Shown here: positions 38,295-46,466 of the stretch, in pieces | Layout of the letters: each line of letters begins with the position of its first letter | How positions within the stretch are numbered: the stretch's first letter is position 1 | Assembly (NCBI GenBank): GCA_964486075.1 | Contig: CAZALU010000001.1 | Span: forward strand, 207-64,206 | Source: an uncultured Verrucomicrobiota bacterium | GTDB taxonomy: Bacteria; Verrucomicrobiota; Kiritimatiellia; JAAZAB01 | Direction: 5' to 3' | Length of the DNA: 64,000 nucleotides | Program-made: the position numbers and the translations under genes | Notes under the pieces: generated by a model | Database searches by the model: none | What the model was told of the DNA's origin: nothing | What the model saw: only the letters and a program-made list of their open reading frames with translations

Positions 38295-39341
38295 TTAAAA
38301 AAATGCTTTAGCCAGCTTCAAAACGCCCTGGCGCCATGGCACGCGGTGCGTAACGCCTGACGATGCGTTGCTTATTCGATCAGCATGGGCTAGATACCAG
38401 CGGTAATTCCTGATTAAAGCTTCCCGGTTGGAATACTTTGGTTGAAAGCCCAGCTTCTTCTCCGCTTTCTCGATGGAGACGAAGGACTCCTTGCCGACTG
38501 TTTCGTAAATCCACTTATACAAAGGCGATAAGTGGGCCAGTTCCAGCAGACGTAGGGCCATAATCGTCGGGCGTTCCGGAAGCGATACGATCCGTTTTCC
38601 GTGTCCGGCTTCGTCAAGCACAGCCTGGAAATCCGAACGTGGCGTTCCAAATTCTTTTGCGCCGATATTGAATGTGTCGTTGATAATATTCTCTGGCATC
38701 GTGGCGCAGAGCCAGATCGCGTCACACAGGTCTGCCACGTCCAGATATTGATAAGGGTTGTTGCCCGGTCCAAGGATGGGGAAGTTATGTCCATCCCTGG
38801 CCCATTCATAGAGCATAGCGAACACCCCCAGCCGTTCCGGTCCGATAAACGATTTCGGGCGCAGGATCGGCAGGCACATTCCGTCCTGACGGCTTTTAGC
38901 GCAGATTGCCTCGGCCAGCACCTTCGCTTCGCCGTATGGGCCTACTCCTATGAGTTCGTCGGTTTCCATGAGTGGATGGTGGTCTGGAATGCCATAAACG
39001 GCTGTGGATGAAATATGGATAAAACGGGCAACTTTTTGACGCTTGGCCTCCTCAAGAACCATTTGGGTGCCTTCGACATCGATGGAATAAATATCGGCCG
39101 GTCTGCAAAGCGGCAAGGCGGCCGCGGCATGCACAACAATATTGGCCCCGTCCATGGCCTGCCGCACGTTCTCACGTTTACGGATATCGCCGCAGATCAC
39201 GCGCACTTGGGCGTTGACATCAGGATAGTCAAACGGAGAAACATCAAGCACCGTGACGTGTTGTTGTTTGGCCAGTAGGTGACGGACGATATTAATGCCG
39301 AGAAATCCGGCTCCACCGGTTACGAGGATTGATTGTTGCAC
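38295..39341 (-). CDS. NAD-dependent epimerase/dehydratase (extended SDR)
   Basis: [21 protein letters not shown] (YxxxK). Confidence 0.92.
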
Positions 39342-39403: not shown

Positions 39404-40090
39404 TTAACACCAATAGGATGCAATGCGCTCAGAATTAGAGGTGTTTTCAACGATTATTCCATTATCAAGTACGATAAAACGACGGCATACCCTGCGCGCG
39501 AAGTCAAGGTTATGAGTTGCCATCAGCAGTGTGGTGTTCAGGCCAATAAGCAATTCGGCTAGTTCTGCTCTGCCGACCGGATCCAGCGCCGCCGAGGGTT
39601 CGTCGAGCAACAACAGCGGCGGATCCGCAACCAGCACGCCGGCCAGGGCCACACGCTGCAGTTGTCCGTGTGAGAGACGATGGGGCGAATGCAAGGCCAG
39701 TTTGGCGATGCCAAGCTTCTCCATCATCGGCAAAGCTTTAGCGCGCGCTTCCGTGCGGGACAAACCCCGGCGTTCCAATGTGAAGGCAATATCGTCAATC
39801 ACGCTTGGAAACAGGATCTGATCATCGGGAATGCCGAACAAAAAGCCTGCCTGATCTCGAATCTGCCGTGTGGTTGCCTTAGATAGAGGGATATCGCACA
39901 CCGTAATTGCCCCATCAAACGGAACCAGGCCCACGGATGCATACAAGAGGGTGGTCTTGCCGGACCCGTTGAGACCCAGCAGGGCCACCCGCTCGCCCGG
40001 AGCGATAGCCAGCGAAATCCCATTAAGAACGGGCGCATCTTCCGGCCGATATCTCGCCGAGACGTTCTGAAAGGTTAGAGCAGAGTTCAT
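39404..40090 (-). CDS. ECF transporter ATPase (CbiO/EcfA)
   Basis: GLNGSGKTT, PDDQILFPSVIDDIAF, LSHGQLQRV, LLLDEP, ATH. Confidence 0.9.
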   Translation of the reverse strand: MNSALTFQNVSARYRPEDAPVLNGISLAIAPGERVALLGLNGSGKTTLLYASVGLVPFDGAITVCDIPLSKATTRQIRDQAGFLFGIPDDQILFPSVIDDIAFTLERRGLSRTEARAKALPMMEKLGIAKLALHSPHRLSHGQLQRVALAGVLVADPPLLLLDEPSAALDPVGRAELAELLIGLNTTLLMATHNLDFARRVCRRFIVLDNGIIVENTSNSERIASYWC

Positions 40091-40836
40091 AAACCATCCG
40101 CCCATCTGGCCGTGATGCTTGCGCCAAGCAAGAGGATCGTGGTGGTCACGGCCAACACATCCAAGATGGAGACGGCTGCCGGCGTTGTCCGGACGGTGAC
40201 CTCAAATCCGCGCAGATCCATGGCGACGGCAACGCGTTCGGCGCGATTCATGATTCGCAGGACCCAAATGGCGGGGAAAGCGCCAAGAACCCTTAATCTC
40301 ATCGTCAGCCTCGACGGCAAGCCGCGTATCCGCAGAGCGGATGAGATGCGCCCAGTTTCATTGGTAAGCATCGCGGTTTGGTGAACGATTTGCATGATTA
40401 GAATTGCCATCGTGCGCGGCACAGGCAATCCGCCCAGCGCCGTGCCCAGCTCAGCAAAATCAAGGGTCGCTATGGTGGCCGCGCAAATAAAAATACATCC
40501 TGTGCCGCGGATGCCGATTTCCAACGGCACTCGCACTGCGCCGAACCAATGGCTGCTTGCCGTATGCGGGGGGGGCACCCAAGGCGTGAGCAGAAACAAG
40601 GGCAGGAATAAAATACCGGCGTATAGCAACAAGCCGACCAGGTTTTTTCTGGGAACGCCACACAGCCATACCCAGCCGACAACAGCGCCGCAGACAAGTG
40701 CCATGCCCAGCGGCTGATGCAGGGGAGCGAAGAGGCAACTTATAAAAACGATCAGCCCGCAAGCCACGCGCGCGGATGGCGTCAAGCTCTGCATACGGCG
40801 ACTGCCTGAACCCCAGAATTCAAGGAACGCTGTCAC
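40087..40836 (-). CDS. ECF transporter T component (CbiQ/EcfT)
   Basis: TM helices; coupling motifs SALRIRG and RAERVAVAMDLRGF. Confidence 0.85.
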   Translation of the reverse strand: MTAFLEFWGSGSRRMQSLTPSARVACGLIVFISCLFAPLHQPLGMALVCGAVVGWVWLCGVPRKNLVGLLLYAGILFLPLFLLTPWVPPPHTASSHWFGAVRVPLEIGIRGTGCIFICAATIATLDFAELGTALGGLPVPRTMAILIMQIVHQTAMLTNETGRISSALRIRGLPSRLTMRLRVLGAFPAIWVLRIMNRAERVAVAMDLRGFEVTVRTTPAAVSILDVLAVTTTILLLGASITARWADGL

Positions 40837-40840
40837 CGGT

Positions 40841-41461
40841 CTATCCTTTCTTGCGGGCTGTTATAATATAGCTATGTTCATCATCGGTCGTGGAAATAAC
40901 GTTGAATCGGTTCCGCTCGAGCAGCTGCGCGGTCTCGTCAGCGCAAACAAGATGATCATGTCTGACGGAAGGATGCACTTTTGCATGGATCCGATTGACC
41001 TGCGCCCGCGAAATCAAGTGCACTATGTGCAGATGGCTTTCCGGCCGCAGTACGCGGTGCAATTCTTTGGCGACAGCCGCGTGATTCTCAAAGTGAGGCC
41101 ATACCGAGAAGCAGATGATCCGATCTATGCTAGCATCCTCAAAGGGAATCTTTTCGGCTGATGCGTGATGCCAACTGGCGCGCACATCATCCGCTTTTCT
41201 CCGCGCCAGCGCAAGCATCCGGGTCGAAATGTCCAACGCCATAACGCGCCCTGCCGACCCAAGCCTTCGCAAAAGCGCCTTGGTAAGATTGCCAGTGCCG
41301 CAACCGACGTCAAGCACAACCTCGCTGGCATTGATATCGAATTGCGCAAGACAAGCATCAAGATCATGGGCTACAAGGGACAGATCGAACCCGGCGTCCC
41401 ATGTGTCGGCGAGCGCATCGAAAAACTCTATGCGGGGATCGGAAATAGGACTTGTTTTCAT
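40841..41461 (-). CDS. Class I SAM-dependent methyltransferase
   Basis: EFFDALADTWD, VLDVGCGTG, ALDISTRML, ELHRVLRP; ATG 41461 overlaps the upstream stop. Confidence 0.88.
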   Translation of the reverse strand: MKTSPISDPRIEFFDALADTWDAGFDLSLVAHDLDACLAQFDINASEVVLDVGCGTGNLTKALLRRLGSAGRVMALDISTRMLALARRKADDVRASWHHASAEKIPFEDASIDRIICFSVWPHFENHAAVAKELHRVLRPESHLHIVHLISRAQVNRIHAKVHPSVRHDHLVCADETAQLLERNRFNVISTTDDEHSYIITARKKG

Positions 41462-41979
41462 CGAGGAGGTTTCTTTATAGGCACATAACCCTTTGATAAG
41501 CGCACGATCGCCGGAATAGCGAAAAGCATAAGTATAATGCCGGGCCAGCCGCTCAGCAAAGAGATTCCTGCGATAAATGTAGCCGGCAGCCCCATATAAA
41601 GCGCTGCCAGATACAAAAGCCCGGCGCCAACAACCCTGCCGTAGATGAGTATTGGTATCAAAAGAATCAACACCGGCGCGCGCGGAAACCAGGCATGGAA
41701 GATGCCAATCAGGATCGCCATGAGGGATAATTCCACTGACATAGTCGGCGCCACCGGCGGATATAACGGCGGCATGCCTGTGACGGCGCCGGATAACAGT
41801 GGGACGACGAAGGCCGTCAGCGCAGATGCGCCTGGCCGCACAAAAAAAGCCAATGCCACCAACGGTAAGTACATAGGCATGAAAATGTGGCCGAGGTGAA
41901 TCAAGTGAAACAATATGGGCAGCAGCAGGGCGATGGCTCCAAACAGCCCGCAATAGGCAAATTCTCGATTGGTCATCAT
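41458..41979 (-). CDS. ECF transporter S component-like membrane protein
   Basis: Hydrophobic 173 aa; LLLPILFH...FMPMYLPL...PLLSGAVTGMPP...SWPGIILML pattern of ECF_trnsprt proteins. Confidence 0.72.
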   Translation of the reverse strand: MMTNREFAYCGLFGAIALLLPILFHLIHLGHIFMPMYLPLVALAFFVRPGASALTAFVVPLLSGAVTGMPPLYPPVAPTMSVELSLMAILIGIFHAWFPRAPVLILLIPILIYGRVVGAGLLYLAALYMGLPATFIAGISLLSGWPGIILMLFAIPAIVRLSKGYVPIKKPPR

Positions 41980-43925
41980 TAAAACTTCAGGTGCGCGCCT
42001 GAGAAAATGCTTGTCCCGGGCATCGGATAGCCGGGTAGAAACTCATAATTTTGATCGGTCAGATTTTCCAGGGCAACGTACAGTTCGCCCGGAATATTGG
42101 TCCAAGTCTTAATATCCAGCGTGATCTTGGCATTAGCCACAAAATATCCGTCAATTTCTTTAAGGTCCTCCGGTGCCGGCGCTCCGGAACGGCCATTATA
42201 GGCATACTGATCGGCAACGTATTCCGCGTCCAGGTCCACTTTGACATTCGGCAAAATCTTGAGCGACACACCGGCGCTGACGCTCACCTTCGGCGAACGG
42301 GGTGTTTTAGCATACTCCGGATGCATCAAAGTCAGTCCGGCAAAACATGACAGCCGCTCCCATGGCGTAAGATGCAACGACGTCTCCCACCCGTCGACCG
42401 CCTTTTTACCCGTATTCAGCAAGCCGTTTGGCGTAACCTCCAGCAGGTTATCGCCGTTCATGTGAAAAATCGAGGATTGTAAGGCGGCCAACTTAGAAAC
42501 ATCCCAGTGGATGCCACCCTCGGTATTATCCATCACCTCGGCTTTTAATTGGTCCATCGTCGACGCGGAGGTACCTTTGATATAGATGCCCGGGTAATTT
42601 ACGCCGCGCGATTGGGATAAAAAGAACGTCAAGGTGTCTTTAGTCGCCGCGAGGGAGGCGCAGGGTGCCAATTCGTTCTCAAACTCACTGCTGATGTAAT
42701 AGCGTCCGCCGACTGAGGGTGTGATCGTGACGTCCTTGACCGGTAAGGCGTAACGCGCGCCCAGGTACGGCGCCACGGTCACGAAAGTGCCCTTGAACTG
42801 GAACGGCACCTTGCCGGAAAGAGTCGTGTTTTTCGATTCTCCGCTGTCCGCCCCCGCATCCAGTCCGGCCGTCAGAGTCCATTGGTCTATCAGCACATCA
42901 TACAGCGAGCGAACCCCGTAATTATCCCAGTCCGTATCGGAGCTCCCCGGGGGAGAGGTGTTGTCGCCGTCCGCCAAATGATCCTTTTTCCAGCGGATTT
43001 TACCATCATCGAGATAAAAAAGGGCAAAGCCCTGGACGAAGTCACTGCCTGTATCCAAACGCAAGCCCTGCGTCAGGGTTTCGGTGGCGAATTTATTCCT
43101 GATGGGAGTCGGCTGGTCAATGGGGCCGGGATCGAGCGCCCAGTTGTCGGTTCGGTGCAGAATATAGGACACATGATTGTCATCTGCGAGATCCACGCCT
43201 AATCTCAAATACTGCCCATCCAGGTTTGCGGCCGAATGCGCGCGTTGGCCCTGCGATTCTTTGTGATAGGCGCCGCCGTAATAATCGAACAGGTCTATTT
43301 TTCCGCCGGTCATCAGCGATCCCAGCCACGTTTGATAACTGCCGTAACCGGCATTGATCTCGGTTTCATACCCCGGCTTTTTGCGCCGCAGGGACTGGAT
43401 ATCCACCGCGCCAAACGTGCCGGAATAAGCTTGCGGCTGCGGCCCCTTGGAGACGGAGACCGAATCCGCGAAATCTACCGGTGTCATATCCAGCAGCGGA
43501 TGATTCCAGGCACCTGACTCGCGCGGAATACCATCCGCATAAATCCTGATTTCACTGCCGGGCCGCCCGGCGCCCTCGCCCCGGATATAAATAGAGCCGC
43601 CATCCGCTCCGCCGTAGGCGCCCAACGGGTTGAAACGTGCGATGGTCACCCCGGGTACGCTGCGCAGGGCGGTCGACAGCTCGCGAGCGTCCAAGCGCTC
43701 GATTTGACTGCGGCCCACTTCCGATACTACGCCGCCGGCCGGCCGGACCGTTTCGCGGGCCGTTATCGGCGGCGCCGTCACCAGGATTTCTGGCGTATCG
43801 CTGATCGATGCCTCTGCCGCCAGATCGATATTTGACATCTGCGCCCCGGCGATGACGCCGCAGAACAGCACGCTCGCACAGACCTGGAACCGCACCCCAC
43901 ATCGCCCAAACATCATTGCACGCAT
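41979..43925 (-). CDS. TonB-dependent receptor
   Basis: Signal peptide, TonB box EILVTA, plug (LRSVPGV, SIYIRG, IYADGIP, VSVSKGP), LENLTDQNYE..GYPMPG, terminal Phe. Confidence 0.92.
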   Translation of the reverse strand: MRAMMFGRCGVRFQVCASVLFCGVIAGAQMSNIDLAAEASISDTPEILVTAPPITARETVRPAGGVVSEVGRSQIERLDARELSTALRSVPGVTIARFNPLGAYGGADGGSIYIRGEGAGRPGSEIRIYADGIPRESGAWNHPLLDMTPVDFADSVSVSKGPQPQAYSGTFGAVDIQSLRRKKPGYETEINAGYGSYQTWLGSLMTGGKIDLFDYYGGAYHKESQGQRAHSAANLDGQYLRLGVDLADDNHVSYILHRTDNWALDPGPIDQPTPIRNKFATETLTQGLRLDTGSDFVQGFALFYLDDGKIRWKKDHLADGDNTSPPGSSDTDWDNYGVRSLYDVLIDQWTLTAGLDAGADSGESKNTTLSGKVPFQFKGTFVTVAPYLGARYALPVKDVTITPSVGGRYYISSEFENELAPCASLAATKDTLTFFLSQSRGVNYPGIYIKGTSASTMDQLKAEVMDNTEGGIHWDVSKLAALQSSIFHMNGDNLLEVTPNGLLNTGKKAVDGWETSLHLTPWERLSCFAGLTLMHPEYAKTPRSPKVSVSAGVSLKILPNVKVDLDAEYVADQYAYNGRSGAPAPEDLKEIDGYFVANAKITLDIKTWTNIPGELYVALENLTDQNYEFLPGYPMPGTSIFSGAHLKF

Positions 43926-44037
43926 TGCCTATGCTCCTGTGTATACCTTGTTGATATTCCGGTTGCGCGGCCGCTGCCATCCGCCAACCCGTTAGCGTCA
44001 TGCCGCCGGCATAGTCCATGCCGTGCTGCGTAAAAAA

Positions 44038-44064
44038 ATAACACGTAATCATAATACGTAACAC
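44038..44064 (-). promoter_or_regulatory. Candidate NikR operator upstream of the TBDR operon
   Basis: On the minus strand GTGTTAC-N13-GTGTTAT, with a pseudo-palindromic spacer. Confidence 0.4.
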
Positions 44065-44228
44065 TGCGCAAGAAAAAAATGCAGGATTTTGGCTGGCAAA
44101 GGCTTATGCAATAATCTTGTTTTCGTGTATTTGCGCGACATCGTAAAGGTGTCGCCTTGGAGTGCGGCAGAGTGCCATTTTTTTAGGTTGAATCAGGCCT
44201 ATCGGGTGGGCAAGGGCGGATGGGACGA

Positions 44229-44642
44229 TCAGGAGAGCCGCTGGCCGAGTGTGCCGGCTGCCAGCGCGACGTGCTTTAAGCCTTTCACGGCCTTGAGGCT
44301 TTTGACCATGGCGTTGATCGCATGCGGCTTTCCGCGGACAGTGACAGTCTCCAGGCAGTTGTCATGATCGAGATGCACGTGCTGCGTTGAAATAATCAAG
44401 TCATGGCTTTCATGTTGGAGCGCTGTCAGTTTGCGGAGCAAATCCGGCTTGTGGTGATTATACACCAGCACAATTGCCCCGGCCACTTCGTTGCCTTCCA
44501 GCCATTCTGTCTCGACCAGACTTTTTCTGATAAAGTCGCCGATAGCTTTGGAGCGGGTCGGACAACGTTCGCTCCGCAGTTTGCGATCGAATTTCTCCAA
44601 CAAACTTTGATCAAGTGATATACTGAAACGTACCAACGCCAT
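44229..44642 (-). CDS. nikR: Nickel-responsive regulator NikR
   Basis: RHH start LVRFSISLD, RSKAIGDFIR, Ni site LQHESH..STQHVHLDHDNCLE. Confidence 0.93.
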   Translation of the reverse strand: MALVRFSISLDQSLLEKFDRKLRSERCPTRSKAIGDFIRKSLVETEWLEGNEVAGAIVLVYNHHKPDLLRKLTALQHESHDLIISTQHVHLDHDNCLETVTVRGKPHAINAMVKSLKAVKGLKHVALAAGTLGQRLS

Positions 44643-44888
44643 TCTAACCTCATTTCCATTTTGTTTTACGTAAATCGTAGCATGACGGGCCCGGAACGAC
44701 AAGGCGGTTTCTGCCAGGGCAGCCTATCGTTTGGCTCGCGCTCTCTTTGCCGTTGACGAAGTCTTATGAGAGCGTTAGCATTCAAGCATACATAAGACGA
44801 GGACGGCCATTTTTGTCGTTACCAGGCATGGCGTCATAAATAATGCAGCATATTGGCAATCTGGTATGCCGAACGGAGCGAGGAATCT

Positions 44889-45242
44889 ATGGCAATTCTG
44901 TTGATCTTTAATCATGCGCCTTACGACGGCACCGACTTGACCTGGAACGCCCTGCGGCTGGCCGGGCAGTTACAGAAAGACGGGGCTGATGTTCGGCTGT
45001 TTCTGATGAATGACTCGGTGGACTTGGCTCGCGACGGCGCGCCGGCGCCGGAAGGCGCTTTCGACTTGGTGCAAATGACCAAGGATCTGATCGCCGCCGG
45101 TGTCACGGTGAAGGTCTGCGGCACCTGCCAGGCTCGCTGTGGTATCCGGAAAGGCCAGCCGTATTACGAAGGCGCGTGTAAAGCGACCATGGCAGAACTG
45201 TCCGAATGGGTGCGTGACAGTGACCAGGTTCTGACTTTTTGA
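44889..45242 (+). CDS. DsrE/DsrF-like family protein
   Basis: NHAPYDGTD..WNALRLA, LFLMNDSV, VKVCGTCQARCG; SD GAGGA before ATG 44889. Confidence 0.85.
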   Translation: MAILLIFNHAPYDGTDLTWNALRLAGQLQKDGADVRLFLMNDSVDLARDGAPAPEGAFDLVQMTKDLIAAGVTVKVCGTCQARCGIRKGQPYYEGACKATMAELSEWVRDSDQVLTF

Positions 45243-45281
45243 GTTAAGGCCATCATTATTAAGGAAGGGAGTGTGTCCATT

Positions 45282-46466
45282 ATGTACGCACGAGAGATTC
45301 GAGCTGGGATTTTTAATTTCGCCATGGTGCACTGGGATCGGCGGTTATTCGACTCGTTGGTCCCGCTGCCGGATGGCACAAGCTATAACGCCTACCTGGT
45401 CAAAGGGCAAGATGCAACGGCCCTGATCGATAGCGCGGACCCGGCCCTGCAGGACGAATTCATGGATCAGCTCCAAGGCGTGGAGCGCATCGACTATGTC
45501 GTATCCCAACATTCGGAGCAGGACCACTCTGGCATGATCCCGTTGGTAATGGCTCGCTTTCCGAACGCCAAGCTGGTTTGCAGCGCTAAGGCCAAAGACC
45601 TGCTCAGCACTCATTTGCGGCTGCCGGAGGATCGACTGGTGGTCGTCGAGGATGGCCAGACCATCTCCCTCGGCGACAAGACGCTGCAGTTCGTCTATAC
45701 GCCCTGGGTTCATTGGCCGGAGACCATGTGTACTTATATTCCGCAGGATAAATGCTTGTTTTCCTGCGACTTATTTGGATCCCACCTGGCCACCACCGAT
45801 CTCTTCGTGACCGACGAGGCCCGCGTATACGAGGCCGCCAAGCGTTATTATGCCGAGATCATGATGCCGTTCCGCAGCTTCATCATCAAGAATCTTGAGA
45901 AGCTTGGCGCGCTGGATTTCGACATGATCGCCCCAAGCCACGGGCCGGTGTACGGCAAGCCGGCCTTTATTTTGGACGCCTATCGGGATTGGGTATCGCC
46001 GGTGATGAAGAACGAGGTCGTACTGCCATACATCAGCATGCATGGCAGCACGGCGGCGATGGTCAGGCATCTGATCGATGCCTTGGCCCGCCACGGAATT
46101 GCCGTGTATGCGTTCGATCTGGCAGTGACGGATATCGGCAAGCTGGCGATCGCCCTGGTGGATGCCGCGACGCTGATTGTCGGAACGCCGACAGTCCACG
46201 TGGGTCCGCACCCGGCCGTGTTCTACGCCGCGCATCTGGCGAACCTGCTGCGCCCCAAGCTGAAGTACGCTGCAATTATCGGATCCTACGGCTGGAGCAG
46301 CCAGGCCGCAGAACAGATCGCCGGGCTCATCCCCAAACTCAAGGTGGCAGTCCTGGGTACCGTCTTACAGAAGGGATACCCGACGGCTGAGACATTCGGA
46401 GAGCTTGATGTATTGGCCGCCGCGGTTGCCAAGGCGCATCGTGAAGACGAACTGGTTCACGCATAG
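45282..46466 (+). CDS. fprA: Flavodiiron protein (FprA, type A flavoprotein)
   Basis: GTSYNAYLV, HSEQDHSG, VHWPETM, FSCDLFG, APSHG, flavodoxin SMHGST. Confidence 0.93.
   Translation: MYAREIRAGIFNFAMVHWDRRLFDSLVPLPDGTSYNAYLVKGQDATALIDSADPALQDEFMDQLQGVERIDYVVSQHSEQDHSGMIPLVMARFPNAKLVCSAKAKDLLSTHLRLPEDRLVVVEDGQTISLGDKTLQFVYTPWVHWPETMCTYIPQDKCLFSCDLFGSHLATTDLFVTDEARVYEAAKRYYAEIMMPFRSFIIKNLEKLGALDFDMIAPSHGPVYGKPAFILDAYRDWVSPVMKNEVVLPYISMHGSTAAMVRHLIDALARHGIAVYAFDLAVTDIGKLAIALVDAATLIVGTPTVHVGPHPAVFYAAHLANLLRPKLKYAAIIGSYGWSSQAAEQIAGLIPKLKVAVLGTVLQKGYPTAETFGELDVLAAAVAKAHREDELVHA

Follow-up and report, generated by a model that had tools for sequence, protein, structure and literature searches.

An operon in an uncultured Verrucomicrobiota bacterium points to an undescribed route of nickel acquisition, combining a TonB-dependent outer-membrane receptor (TBDR), an ECF transporter whose S component belongs to a new family and a SAM-dependent methyltransferase (MT). 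The genes lie on the minus strand of the window (the whole stretch of DNA analyzed, 64,000 nucleotides) in the order nikR, a 303-nt spacer, TBDR, S component, MT, EcfT and EcfA (Table 1). That they constitute a NikR-controlled nickel-acquisition system reaching across both membranes, with the MT acting on the cargo, is a reading to which we give an even chance.

Table 1. Features of the nikR-TBDR-ECF operon, in positions of the window.
Feature	Position	Strand	Description
nikR	44229..44642	-	137 aa; ribbon-helix-helix repressor, nickel-responsive
NikR-box-like operator	44038..44064		two consensus half-sites, tandem, 13 nt apart
TBDR (TonB-dependent outer-membrane receptor)	41979..43925	-	648 aa; N-terminal signal-like segment and Plug
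ECF S component, new family	41458..41979	-	173 aa, six TM helices
Class I SAM-dependent methyltransferase (MT)	40841..41461	-	206 aa; true start is the ATG at 41461
EcfT, transmembrane coupling component	40087..40836	-	249 aa counted from the GTG start
EcfA, single ABC ATPase	39404..40105	-	233 aa; 228 aa with the ATGA-overlapped start at 40090

The first-pass annotation had described coupled genes directly downstream of nikR. The six genes, their coupling and their place all stand, but the spacer separates nikR from the TBDR gene. Read from the sequence, the TBDR and S genes overlap by 1 nt (TAATG) and the S and MT genes by 4 nt (ATGA), EcfT begins at a GTG codon after a 4-nt gap, and EcfA overlaps EcfT by an ATGA if it starts at 40090 or by 19 nt if it starts at 40105. 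Plug (Pfam, 52.8 bits) was the sole domain detected in the TBDR, which scored far below the cut-offs of all NCBIfam TBDR models. EcfT matched Pfam CbiQ (PF02361; 53.5 bits, cut-off 25), scored 47 bits with TIGR02454, under the cut-off of that model, and its translation contains two Arg-Gly coupling-helix motifs, LRIRG and MDLRG. EcfA matched Pfam ABC_tran (85 bits); its top NCBIfam matches were ECF ATPases, all below the equivalog cut-offs (TIGR04520, 168 bits vs 315), and the Walker A, signature, Walker B and ECF-type PDDQ Q-helix motifs are all present in the translation. By analogy with group I ECF systems, the ATPase presumably forms a homodimer. With a T component, an ECF-type ATPase and a six-helix S fold each present, the operon encodes a predicted ECF importer.

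The nikR gene was identified by Pfam NikR_C (100 bits) together with RHH_1, and by the NCBIfam NikR equivalog NF003381 (146 bits, cut-off 105). The motif H-x10-HVH-x5-C, read from the translation, lines up with the high-affinity nickel site of the E. coli protein (H76, H87, H89, C95). No second NikR_C gene was found in the 3.36-Mb assembly. The spacer downstream of nikR holds a NikR-box-like site, 113 nt 5' of the TBDR start codon, which on the operon strand reads GTGTTAC-N13-GTGTTAT, a tandem rather than inverted arrangement with TATTAT between the half-sites. It was the top position-weight-matrix match in the 64-kb window (17.4 bits; runner-up 6.7), and the pattern RTAACAC-N13-GTAACAC, with at most one mismatch, occurs a single time in the 3.36-Mb genome, at this site (control pattern, 0). 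Since the half-sites are in tandem and a canonical inverted NikR box, with up to two mismatches, is absent from the whole source genome, binding of NikR to this site is only plausible.

Homologous loci bear on the same question. The perfect tandem box arrangement is also found in locus L019, and with at most one mismatch in L039, L073 and L082, the last two also being readable as degenerate inverted boxes. The consensus predicted for delta-proteobacterial NikR is GTGTTAC-N13/14-GTAACAC (PMC545781). With at most one mismatch allowed, this pattern gave 17 sites, each of them 5' of the cassette, with no other site in 1.06 Mb; a further three everted and four tandem sites, likewise all 5' of the cassette, bring the total to 24. 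Boxes of the delta-proteobacterial type at these loci are located almost exclusively 5' of the cassette. A nikR gene lay within 5 kb in 17 of the 43 loci with room on both sides, and about half of the homologous loci have neither a nikR gene nor a recognizable box.

The source genome needs nickel, since it encodes the large subunits of two group-4 [NiFe]-hydrogenases, in which the RxCGxC and DPCxxC motifs are present, and carries hypA-hypB. Neither CbiM/NikM (PF01891) nor NiCoT nor HupE/UreJ was found in it, at 92% completeness. Uptake of a nickel or cobalt chelate, or of a tetrapyrrole, had been proposed for the operon from a first inspection. There is good support for nickel-linked uptake: the sole nikR is adjacent, the NikR-box-like site is unique, homologous loci carry NikR boxes and genes, and the common nickel importer families were not found in this nickel-requiring genome. 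No cobalt link emerged, with no cobalamin or NiCo riboswitch in the operon region and no B12 genes among those examined beside the operon in the window, nor did any evidence of a tetrapyrrole cargo. No nickelophore, and no genes for making one, were identified.

The order S-MT-EcfT-EcfA recurs in 80 loci from 80 species, so the arrangement is not a product of chance. The hosts are spread over many diderm phyla (Verrucomicrobiota, Lentisphaerota, Kiritimatiellia, Planctomycetota, Fibrobacterota, Myxococcota, Acidobacteriota, Aminicenantes, Ignavibacteriota, Bdellovibrionota and others); almost all are uncultured and, judging by record titles, come largely from metagenomes of anoxic sediment, fens, groundwater and digesters. 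The MT gene directly follows that of S in 73 of 77 loci, EcfT and EcfA were found in 62 and 61 of 64, respectively, and a TBDR gene stands immediately 5' of S in 53 of the 65 loci with room for one. In two of the 80 loci (L021 and L084) EcfT comes straight after S, without an MT. Fusions of S and MT into one polypeptide were seen at five of the 80 loci and across six or more independent 50%-identity clusters; P0241, P0253, P0261, P0278, P0280, P0337 and P0392 have the MT attached at the C-terminal end of S. Recurrence of the fusion in several independent clusters makes the MT an integral part of the system. Fusion of S to EcfA also occurs.

No Pfam or NCBIfam model matched the S protein, and a profile search of PDB sequences returned nothing. 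Its AF2 model (pLDDT 89) nevertheless has a genuine ECF S-component fold as judged by Foldseek, where the top matches were all solved S components (RibU, ThiT, BioY, FolT, 4huq_S) with TM scores of 0.6-0.7 and a maximum of 0.71. The first-pass annotation had seen no recognizable NikM/CbiM in this protein, a view borne out by the missing PF01891 match; nor was any named vitamin-specific family (RibU, ThiT, BioY, FolT, PanT, CbrT, QueT and others) matched, and the protein is left unclassified. Metal regulation is indicated at an operon whose S component falls into no known vitamin-specific family. The S family comprises about 700 90%-identity clusters, 1153 50%-identity clusters and 299 species genomes, and 17 of 30 members weakly matched the generic model PF12822.

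In the family alignment the S protein is tightly conserved (mean column identity 68%), with a variable N-terminus. The invariant residues are H25, FMPMYLPL (33-40), TGMPP (67-71), M80, E83, G114-R115 and SGWPG (143-147), which probably sit in loops and helix ends facing outward. By the usual S-component topology, the invariant His, Met, Tyr, Glu and Arg would fall in loop 1, in loop 3 and near the outer ends of helices TM4-6, and it is there that S components bind their substrates. R115 and E83, both within helices, would fit recognition of a metal-carboxylate chelate, for which the binding of Ni-(His)2 by NikA offers an analogy.

The MT, matched by Pfam Methyltransf_25/11 at about 90 bits, is cytoplasmic and has an intact SAM site, whose residues (the VGCGTG motif, D77 and D113) are invariant in 33 homologues. 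The same homologues share family-specific invariants outside this site, namely F14, W21, P122-H123, H148, N156 and H159, with D169 nearly invariant. The AF2 model (pLDDT 94.5) has mostly generic small-molecule methyltransferases as structural neighbors and therefore does not reveal the substrate; the top match was a Trm112-activated putative methyltransferase. H123 aligns with a His of the closest solved relatives, the phosphoethanolamine N-methyltransferases, where it is presumably catalytic, while nothing in the closest solved methyltransferases corresponds to H148, N156 or H159. Identity with the arsenite methyltransferase ArsM was rejected (NF008823, 60.8 bits vs a cut-off of 263; the only conserved cysteines are that of the SAM motif and C117), and ArsM-annotated proteins were only distant matches, at 50-60 bits. 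The DVU_1556 family methyltransferase was likewise rejected (NF045667, 74.8 bits vs a curated cut-off of 155); this model has matches below its cut-off in 14 of 14 control genomes, and another gene of the source genome outscores the MT. Current annotations label the genes of the module 'hypothetical protein' and 'UbiE-like methyltransferase'.

The MT family, with the same invariant PH, H, IN..H and D motifs, also occurs in operons of the composition TBDR-ZnuA-like-ABC-ABC3(-TonB), and adjoins a second type of S component as well. Among these sister loci NikR genes were found in six and NikR boxes in 6 of 27, as compared with none of 55 generic-methyltransferase controls. The presence of a sister clade in NikR-linked TBDR-ZnuABC-like operons implies that the MT tracks a NikR-linked cargo and not one transporter architecture. 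The receptors resemble each other too, as the window TBDR and that of a ZnuABC-type MT operon in Syntrophorhabdus aromaticivorans show 27-29% identity across plug and C-terminal barrel and have a C-terminal GYPMPG motif in common.

Together, the data suggest a model in which NikR would let go of its operator in the nikR-TBDR spacer when nickel is scarce. The TBDR would then carry a nickel species through the outer membrane, and a group-I-style ECF transporter, composed of the new S component, EcfT and an EcfA homodimer, would take it through the inner membrane. At the cytoplasmic face the MT, attached to the C-terminal end of S by tethering or fusion, would act on the emerging cargo and may methylate a donor group of an organic nickel chelate, by which the metal would be released or the ligand trapped or inactivated. 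The parts of this model differ in strength. Nickel is probably the cargo; whether it travels as a chelate or as the free ion is evenly poised, and methylation of the imported ligand by the MT is a tentative proposal that falls somewhat short of even. A broader version, in which methylation-coupled metal import is a new transport principle, is doubtful. A nickel chelate, either a widely shared nickelophore or an environmental nickel complex, would enter through TBDR-ECF or TBDR-ZnuABC-like importers, and an importer-docked or importer-fused MT would methylate a donor atom of the ligand on arrival, freeing nickel for HypA/HypB and blocking its rebinding. If true, this would be the nickel counterpart of the siderophore esterases and reductases.

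The alternative that survives best, although we consider it unlikely, is that the cargo is free Ni2+ (possibly Co2+). The MT-fold protein would in that case not modify a ligand but serve as a cytoplasmic nickel acceptor through His123, His148, His159 and Asp169, handing the metal to HypA/HypB, or it would be a methyltransferase that depends on nickel and has a small molecule of the cell itself as its substrate. The class of ZnuA-type binding proteins is known to bind free metal ions, and the pairing of the sister MT clade with such proteins and ABC-ABC3 importers speaks for a free ion as cargo and against methylation of a ligand, although the ZnuA-like protein of these operons is very divergent (44.6 bits to Pfam ZnuA, no PDB sequence match). 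The family-specific invariants of the MT are His, Asn and Asp, typical metal ligands, and three of them are those lacking a counterpart in the closest solved methyltransferases. TBDRs, too, are able to carry free metal ions, ZnuD being an example (PMC2895646). On the other hand, the strictly invariant SAM motifs argue for real methyl transfer, the H123 shared with phosphoethanolamine N-methyltransferases may be catalytic rather than a metal ligand, and the invariant intramembrane Arg of S would be unusual for a bare-cation site. NikM and CbiM bind metal through a conserved N-terminus, whereas that of the S protein is variable.

It is improbable that the system takes up a nickel macrocycle, for instance coenzyme F430 or a different Ni-tetrapyrrole that methanogens release, which the MT would help to trap or dismantle for its nickel. 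Tetrapyrroles, heme and B12 among them, are normally imported by a TBDR together with an ABC or ECF transporter, the hosts derive largely from the anoxic habitats in which methanogens would release such compounds, and the invariant residues of S are compatible with it (His and Met as possible axial ligands, Arg for carboxylate binding, Tyr/Trp). However, neither a cobalamin or NiCo riboswitch nor any other riboswitch was found in the operon region, no B12 or other tetrapyrrole-metabolism genes were found among the window genes examined beside the operon, opening a macrocycle is beyond a class I methyltransferase acting by itself, and ZnuA-like binding proteins are not of the tetrapyrrole class.

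Slightly less probable still is that the MT does not act on the cargo, but methylates a transporter protein or is a SAM-sensing regulatory domain that gates import. Its fusion to the S subunit would suit such a role, and ABC importers with fused regulatory domains are known. Yet the same MT stands beside unrelated importers (ECF S and ZnuABC-type) that share no evident protein target, its invariant pocket residues outside the SAM site speak for a small, defined substrate, and its structural neighbors, the Trm112-activated top match notwithstanding, are mostly small-molecule enzymes. Finally, an organic micronutrient importer unrelated to nickel, with a coincidentally adjacent nikR, is very remote, because even though S components of this fold normally bind vitamins and about half of the loci lack NikR gene and box, NikR genes and boxes are enriched at the cassette across many phyla (24 sites upstream, none elsewhere) and again at the sister operons, the single nikR and the single, tandem, box of the genome are both at this operon, and the named vitamin-specific S families are unmatched.

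Like the window operon, the group I ECF transporters NikMNQO and CbiMNQO, which import Ni2+/Co2+ and among which is the NikR-regulated nik(MN)QO of delta-proteobacteria (PMC545781), are encoded in an operon of their own that has a single CbiQ-type T component and a single CbiO-type ATPase. They also share a NikR linkage, with an operator of the type seen at homologous loci of the cassette, and a presumed role in supplying nickel to [NiFe]-hydrogenases. They differ in that the window S protein has six rather than seven TM helices, no PF01891 match and no conserved metal-binding N-terminus, and in that the operon lacks NikN/CbiN, NikK and NikL but has the TBDR and methyltransferase as integral parts. 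Nickel-regulated, TonB-energized passage through the outer membrane is found in Helicobacter pylori, where FrpB4 and FecA3 work with ExbBD-TonB under NikR repression and a nickelophore is suspected (review PMC3856676). The inner-membrane step there is by NixA or NiuBDE and not by an ECF transporter, there is no methyltransferase, and the window TBDR exceeded no NCBIfam TBDR cut-off. The vitamin-specific S components (RibU, ThiT, BioY, FolT, PdxU2/HmpT) share the six-helix fold, a TM1 face of small residues and conserved residues at substrate-binding positions, but sequence similarity to them is marginal, and the window family has His/Met-rich conserved positions, a dedicated operon and occasional fusion to MT or EcfA.

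NikABCDE, with Ni-(L-His)2, and opine-metallophore importers such as CntABCDF, with staphylopine, bring nickel in as a small organic chelate. In these systems a protein side chain completes the coordination of the metal and an Arg binds the ligand carboxylate. Unlike the system proposed here, they employ a cluster C binding protein and a type I ABC importer without a built-in ligand-modifying enzyme. A cytoplasmic enzyme that is coupled to a transporter, by its genes and at times physically, and modifies the arriving cargo is known from PnuC with the NadR kinase and from PTS group translocation, which we use only as a working analogy, the modification being phosphorylation there and methylation here. 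We know of no methyltransferase-coupled importer described so far, and a literature search found neither such an importer nor a paper describing this module.

Nickel acquisition by most anaerobic environmental diderm bacteria is, to our knowledge, only partly known. The module is present in about 300 species-level genomes from more than 10 phyla and contributes an unclassified family of S components, a family of TBDRs linked to NikR and an MT family that tracks NikR-regulated importers of unrelated architecture. Because of the generic annotations that these genes now carry, nickel uptake goes unrecognized in metabolic reconstructions of these metagenome-assembled genomes. If the MT acts on the cargo, the system would be the first importer to carry a methylation step of its own, and the methylated product would provide a chemical handle for identifying the natural nickel ligand.

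Six genes run in one direction on the minus strand (39404-44642), and their domains and sequence bear out the gene set and the translational coupling named by the first-pass annotation. As read from the sequence, the genes for the TonB-dependent outer-membrane receptor (TBDR) and the S protein meet in TAATG and those for S and the methyltransferase (MT) in ATGA, while MT and EcfT are set 4 nt apart and EcfT and EcfA overlap by ATGA or by 19 nt. The same annotation had placed the transporter genes directly downstream of nikR; they do follow it, but with a spacer in between, which may hold a promoter and operator of their own. Counts in a scan for sigma-70 promoters and terminators equalled the shuffled expectation, and this uninformative scan was therefore left out of the definition of the transcription unit. 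Rfam models run over 38-46 kb with permissive thresholds gave no match, and riboswitches for B12, NiCo or other ligands were not found.

Features of the nikR-linked transporter operon and its surroundings
Feature	Position	Strand	Description
SDR epimerase	38295-39341	-	NAD-dependent epimerase/dehydratase; 62 nt downstream of EcfA
EcfA		-	after EcfT; single ECF-type ABC ATPase
EcfT		-	after MT; CbiQ family
MT	start corrected to ATG 41461	-	206 aa; class I SAM methyltransferase; start from junction reading
S protein	41458-41979	-	173-aa membrane protein; no Pfam or NCBIfam match
TBDR	41979-43925	-	648 aa; Plug is the sole domain detected
Candidate NikR box	44038-44064		tandem orientation
Spacer nikR/TBDR			303 nt
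nikR	44229-44642	-	NikR_C and RHH domains; NCBIfam NikR equivalog, 146 bits (cut-off 105)
Inverted repeat	44761-44798		perfect, 8 bp; GTCTTATG-N22-CATAAGAC; divergent promoter region of nikR and the DsrE-like gene
DsrE/TusD-like and flavodiiron genes	44853-46466	+	129 aa; 397 aa, flavorubredoxin-like; divergent from nikR

Three flanking genes were weighed for membership of the operon, the SDR epimerase gene downstream and the DsrE-like and flavodiiron genes upstream, and all three were rejected, being unconserved at homologous loci. The epimerase is HpnA-like (103 bits, below the cut-off) and probably stands outside the system, because among 80 loci it was seen at L051 only, there on the opposite strand.

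The modelled fold identifies the S-like protein as a real ECF S component of a new family. An AlphaFold model built from 30 homologues (pLDDT 89) had solved ECF S components as all of its best Foldseek matches (RibU, ThiT, BioY, FolT and the S chain of 4huq; TM ≤0.71). A PDB sequence search with the family profile gave no match, leaving the fold comparison alone informative; among domain models, CbiM/NikM did not match the family and the generic PF12822 was the sole one that did, weakly and in 17 of 30 members. At 90% identity the family forms ~700 clusters, and at 50% identity (E ≤0.001) 1153; it was found in 299 species-representative genomes, and its conservation is unusually high, with alignment columns averaging 68% identity. 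H25, an FMPMYLPL block, TGMPP, M80, E83, G114-R115 and SGWPG are invariant. S components usually have the N-terminus inside and bind substrate at loops 1 and 3 and the outer ends of helices 4-6; on this topology, the invariant residues would lie in just these loops and helix ends. Some members carry fusions (among the S-family proteins P0272, P0275 and P0395), with S joined to an ABC ATPase (449 and 579 aa) or preceded by a TM1506/DUF1893 domain (381 aa).

The cassette was surveyed at 80 loci from 80 species, nearly all of them MAGs, spanning Verrucomicrobiota, Lentisphaerota, Kiritimatiellia, Planctomycetota, Fibrobacterota, Myxococcota, Acidobacteriota, Aminicenantes, Ignavibacteriota, Bdellovibrionota and others, with counts taken from loci with enough flanking sequence. 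MT directly follows S at 73 of 77 loci, EcfT is present at 62 and EcfA at 61 of 64, and a TBDR precedes S at 53 of 65. At five of the 80 loci S and MT form a single ORF; P0241 is such a fusion (383 aa), and six more 50%-identity cluster representatives are fused likewise. MT is always C-terminal to S in the fusions, which places it on the cytoplasmic side. Judged by this conserved position and by the fusions, MT is a functional part of the system rather than a passenger gene. A prediction of the S-MT complex scored 0.00, which counts neither for nor against binding.

Control by nickel is suggested by the operators. The delta-proteobacterial NikR consensus is GTGTTAC-N13/14-GTAACAC (PMC545781), and allowing ≤1 mismatch this inverted pattern occurs 17 times at homologous loci, always ≤3.6 kb upstream of S, with 0 sites elsewhere in 1.06 Mb. 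Everted (n=3) and tandem (n=4) arrangements are likewise confined to the upstream side. A PWM derived from these boxes found 37 sites of ≥15 bits upstream and 2 elsewhere, but because it was trained on upstream sites, the plain pattern count is the one free of bias. Of the 43 loci with enough sequence on either flank, 17 have a nikR gene within 5 kb. The candidate box in the window, 113 nt ahead of the TBDR start, outscores every other PWM match in the 64 kb (17.4 bits, against 6.7 for the runner-up). Measured against the delta-proteobacterial consensus, one of its half-sites is perfect and the other agrees in 6 of 7 bases, with the canonical N13 spacing; locus L019 has a perfect form of the tandem arrangement. 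The window's site occurs just once in the 3.36-Mb assembly, where no canonical inverted box (≤2 mismatches) was found and the only nikR copy is the one next to the cassette. Close relatives with recognisable boxes have them upstream of nikR (genome G002) or of the TBDR (G008). The inverted repeat, which lies 119-156 nt ahead of the nikR start, differs from the NikR box (a nearby PWM match at 44772 reaches just 5.6 bits) and may serve a different regulator as its operator.

Several loci depart from the common layout. One or two small genes without a Pfam family stand between the NikR box and the TBDR at L082:6038-7047, L074:6049-7011 and L006:5111-6117 (Bdellovibrionota, Myxococcota-type and Raymondbacteria), and the window has none. 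The first of those in L082 encodes a lipoprotein signal sequence, and such genes may supply the system with periplasmic components particular to these lineages. In L101, from the same-family relative G008, ~190 nt separate S from a much more divergent MT (84 bits), and the gap holds a second, weaker NikR-box-like site at about 2954 (16.6 bits). The cassette of L004 (Akkermansiaceae-type) is flanked by ArsR, a MIP channel and CobW on one side and by a second TBDR, a radical SAM enzyme and another ArsR on the other, surroundings that look like a metal-homeostasis island.

Relatives of MT accompany a different kind of importer. Members of a sister clade share 31-36% identity with the MT of the window and have identical invariant motifs. 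L096 and L097 carry them in TBDR-MT-ZnuA-ABC-ABC3 operons; at L098 the neighbours are NikR and ZnuABC-like genes, and at L099 the protein is fused to a prepilin-type domain, again with ZnuABC-like genes alongside. Surveying whole genomes turned up 24 full-length members of the family that fall outside the clade of the window's MT, most of them standing with ZnuA-like, ABC and ABC-3 genes; others adjoin a second, more distant S type, without a TBDR in Bacillota-type genomes. The cultured Syntrophorhabdus aromaticivorans UI has an operon of TBDR, ZnuA-like, ABC, ABC-3, MT and TonB genes, and its TBDR resembles that of the window over the plug and the barrel end. Downstream of TonB there, after ~290 nt and on the same strand, comes a further, unrelated gene for a class I methyltransferase (249 aa; L110:8759-9508). 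Among the sister loci, with L096, L098 and L099 counted in, six have NikR genes and 6 of 27 have NikR boxes; the 55 control loci with generic methyltransferases (654 kb) have 0 of either. Gene neighbourhoods thus distributed point to an MT that tracks the cargo, not the type of transporter.

The genome has a use for nickel: it encodes hypA-hypB and two group-4 [NiFe]-hydrogenase large subunits, each with both nickel-binding cysteine motifs. Pfam models found no CbiM/NikM, NiCoT or HupE/UreJ in the assembly, which is 92% complete. Among 41 relatives, three genomes bear the cassette, G000 and G008 without CbiM and G002 with both, and CbiM is absent from 18 of the 38 without the cassette; a complementary distribution was dropped as evidence because the genomes are too few and not independent.

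In MT, the SAM-binding residues (VGCGTG, D77, D113) are invariant, as are the family-specific F14, W21, P122-H123, H148, N156 and H159, and nearly so D169. By profile search its best PDB sequence relatives are phosphoethanolamine N-methyltransferases, which share a His aligned with H123 and have no counterparts of H148, N156 and H159. Foldseek and the PDB profile search yielded generic small-molecule class I methyltransferases only, and a substrate could not be assigned. The DVU_1556 methyltransferase family was rejected (below cut-off, matching every control genome, no literature found), and so was ArsM or metalloid methylation, given the low scores and absent Cys triad.

We rank first a nickel chelate whose ligand would be methylated by MT, because an Arg and a Glu are invariant in S, TBDRs are used and the SAM site is strictly kept. 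Second comes a free nickel ion with MT as its acceptor, a reading favoured by the partnership of sister MTs with ZnuA-like proteins, one of which gave no match in a PDB sequence search. A Ni-macrocycle as cargo, protein methylation or SAM sensing by MT, and a nutrient unrelated to nickel fall well behind.

No account of such a module turned up in full-text literature searches. The system is best regarded as akin to NikR-regulated ECF and TonB-dependent nickel uptake, with an S family that is new and an integrated methyltransferase that is unprecedented.
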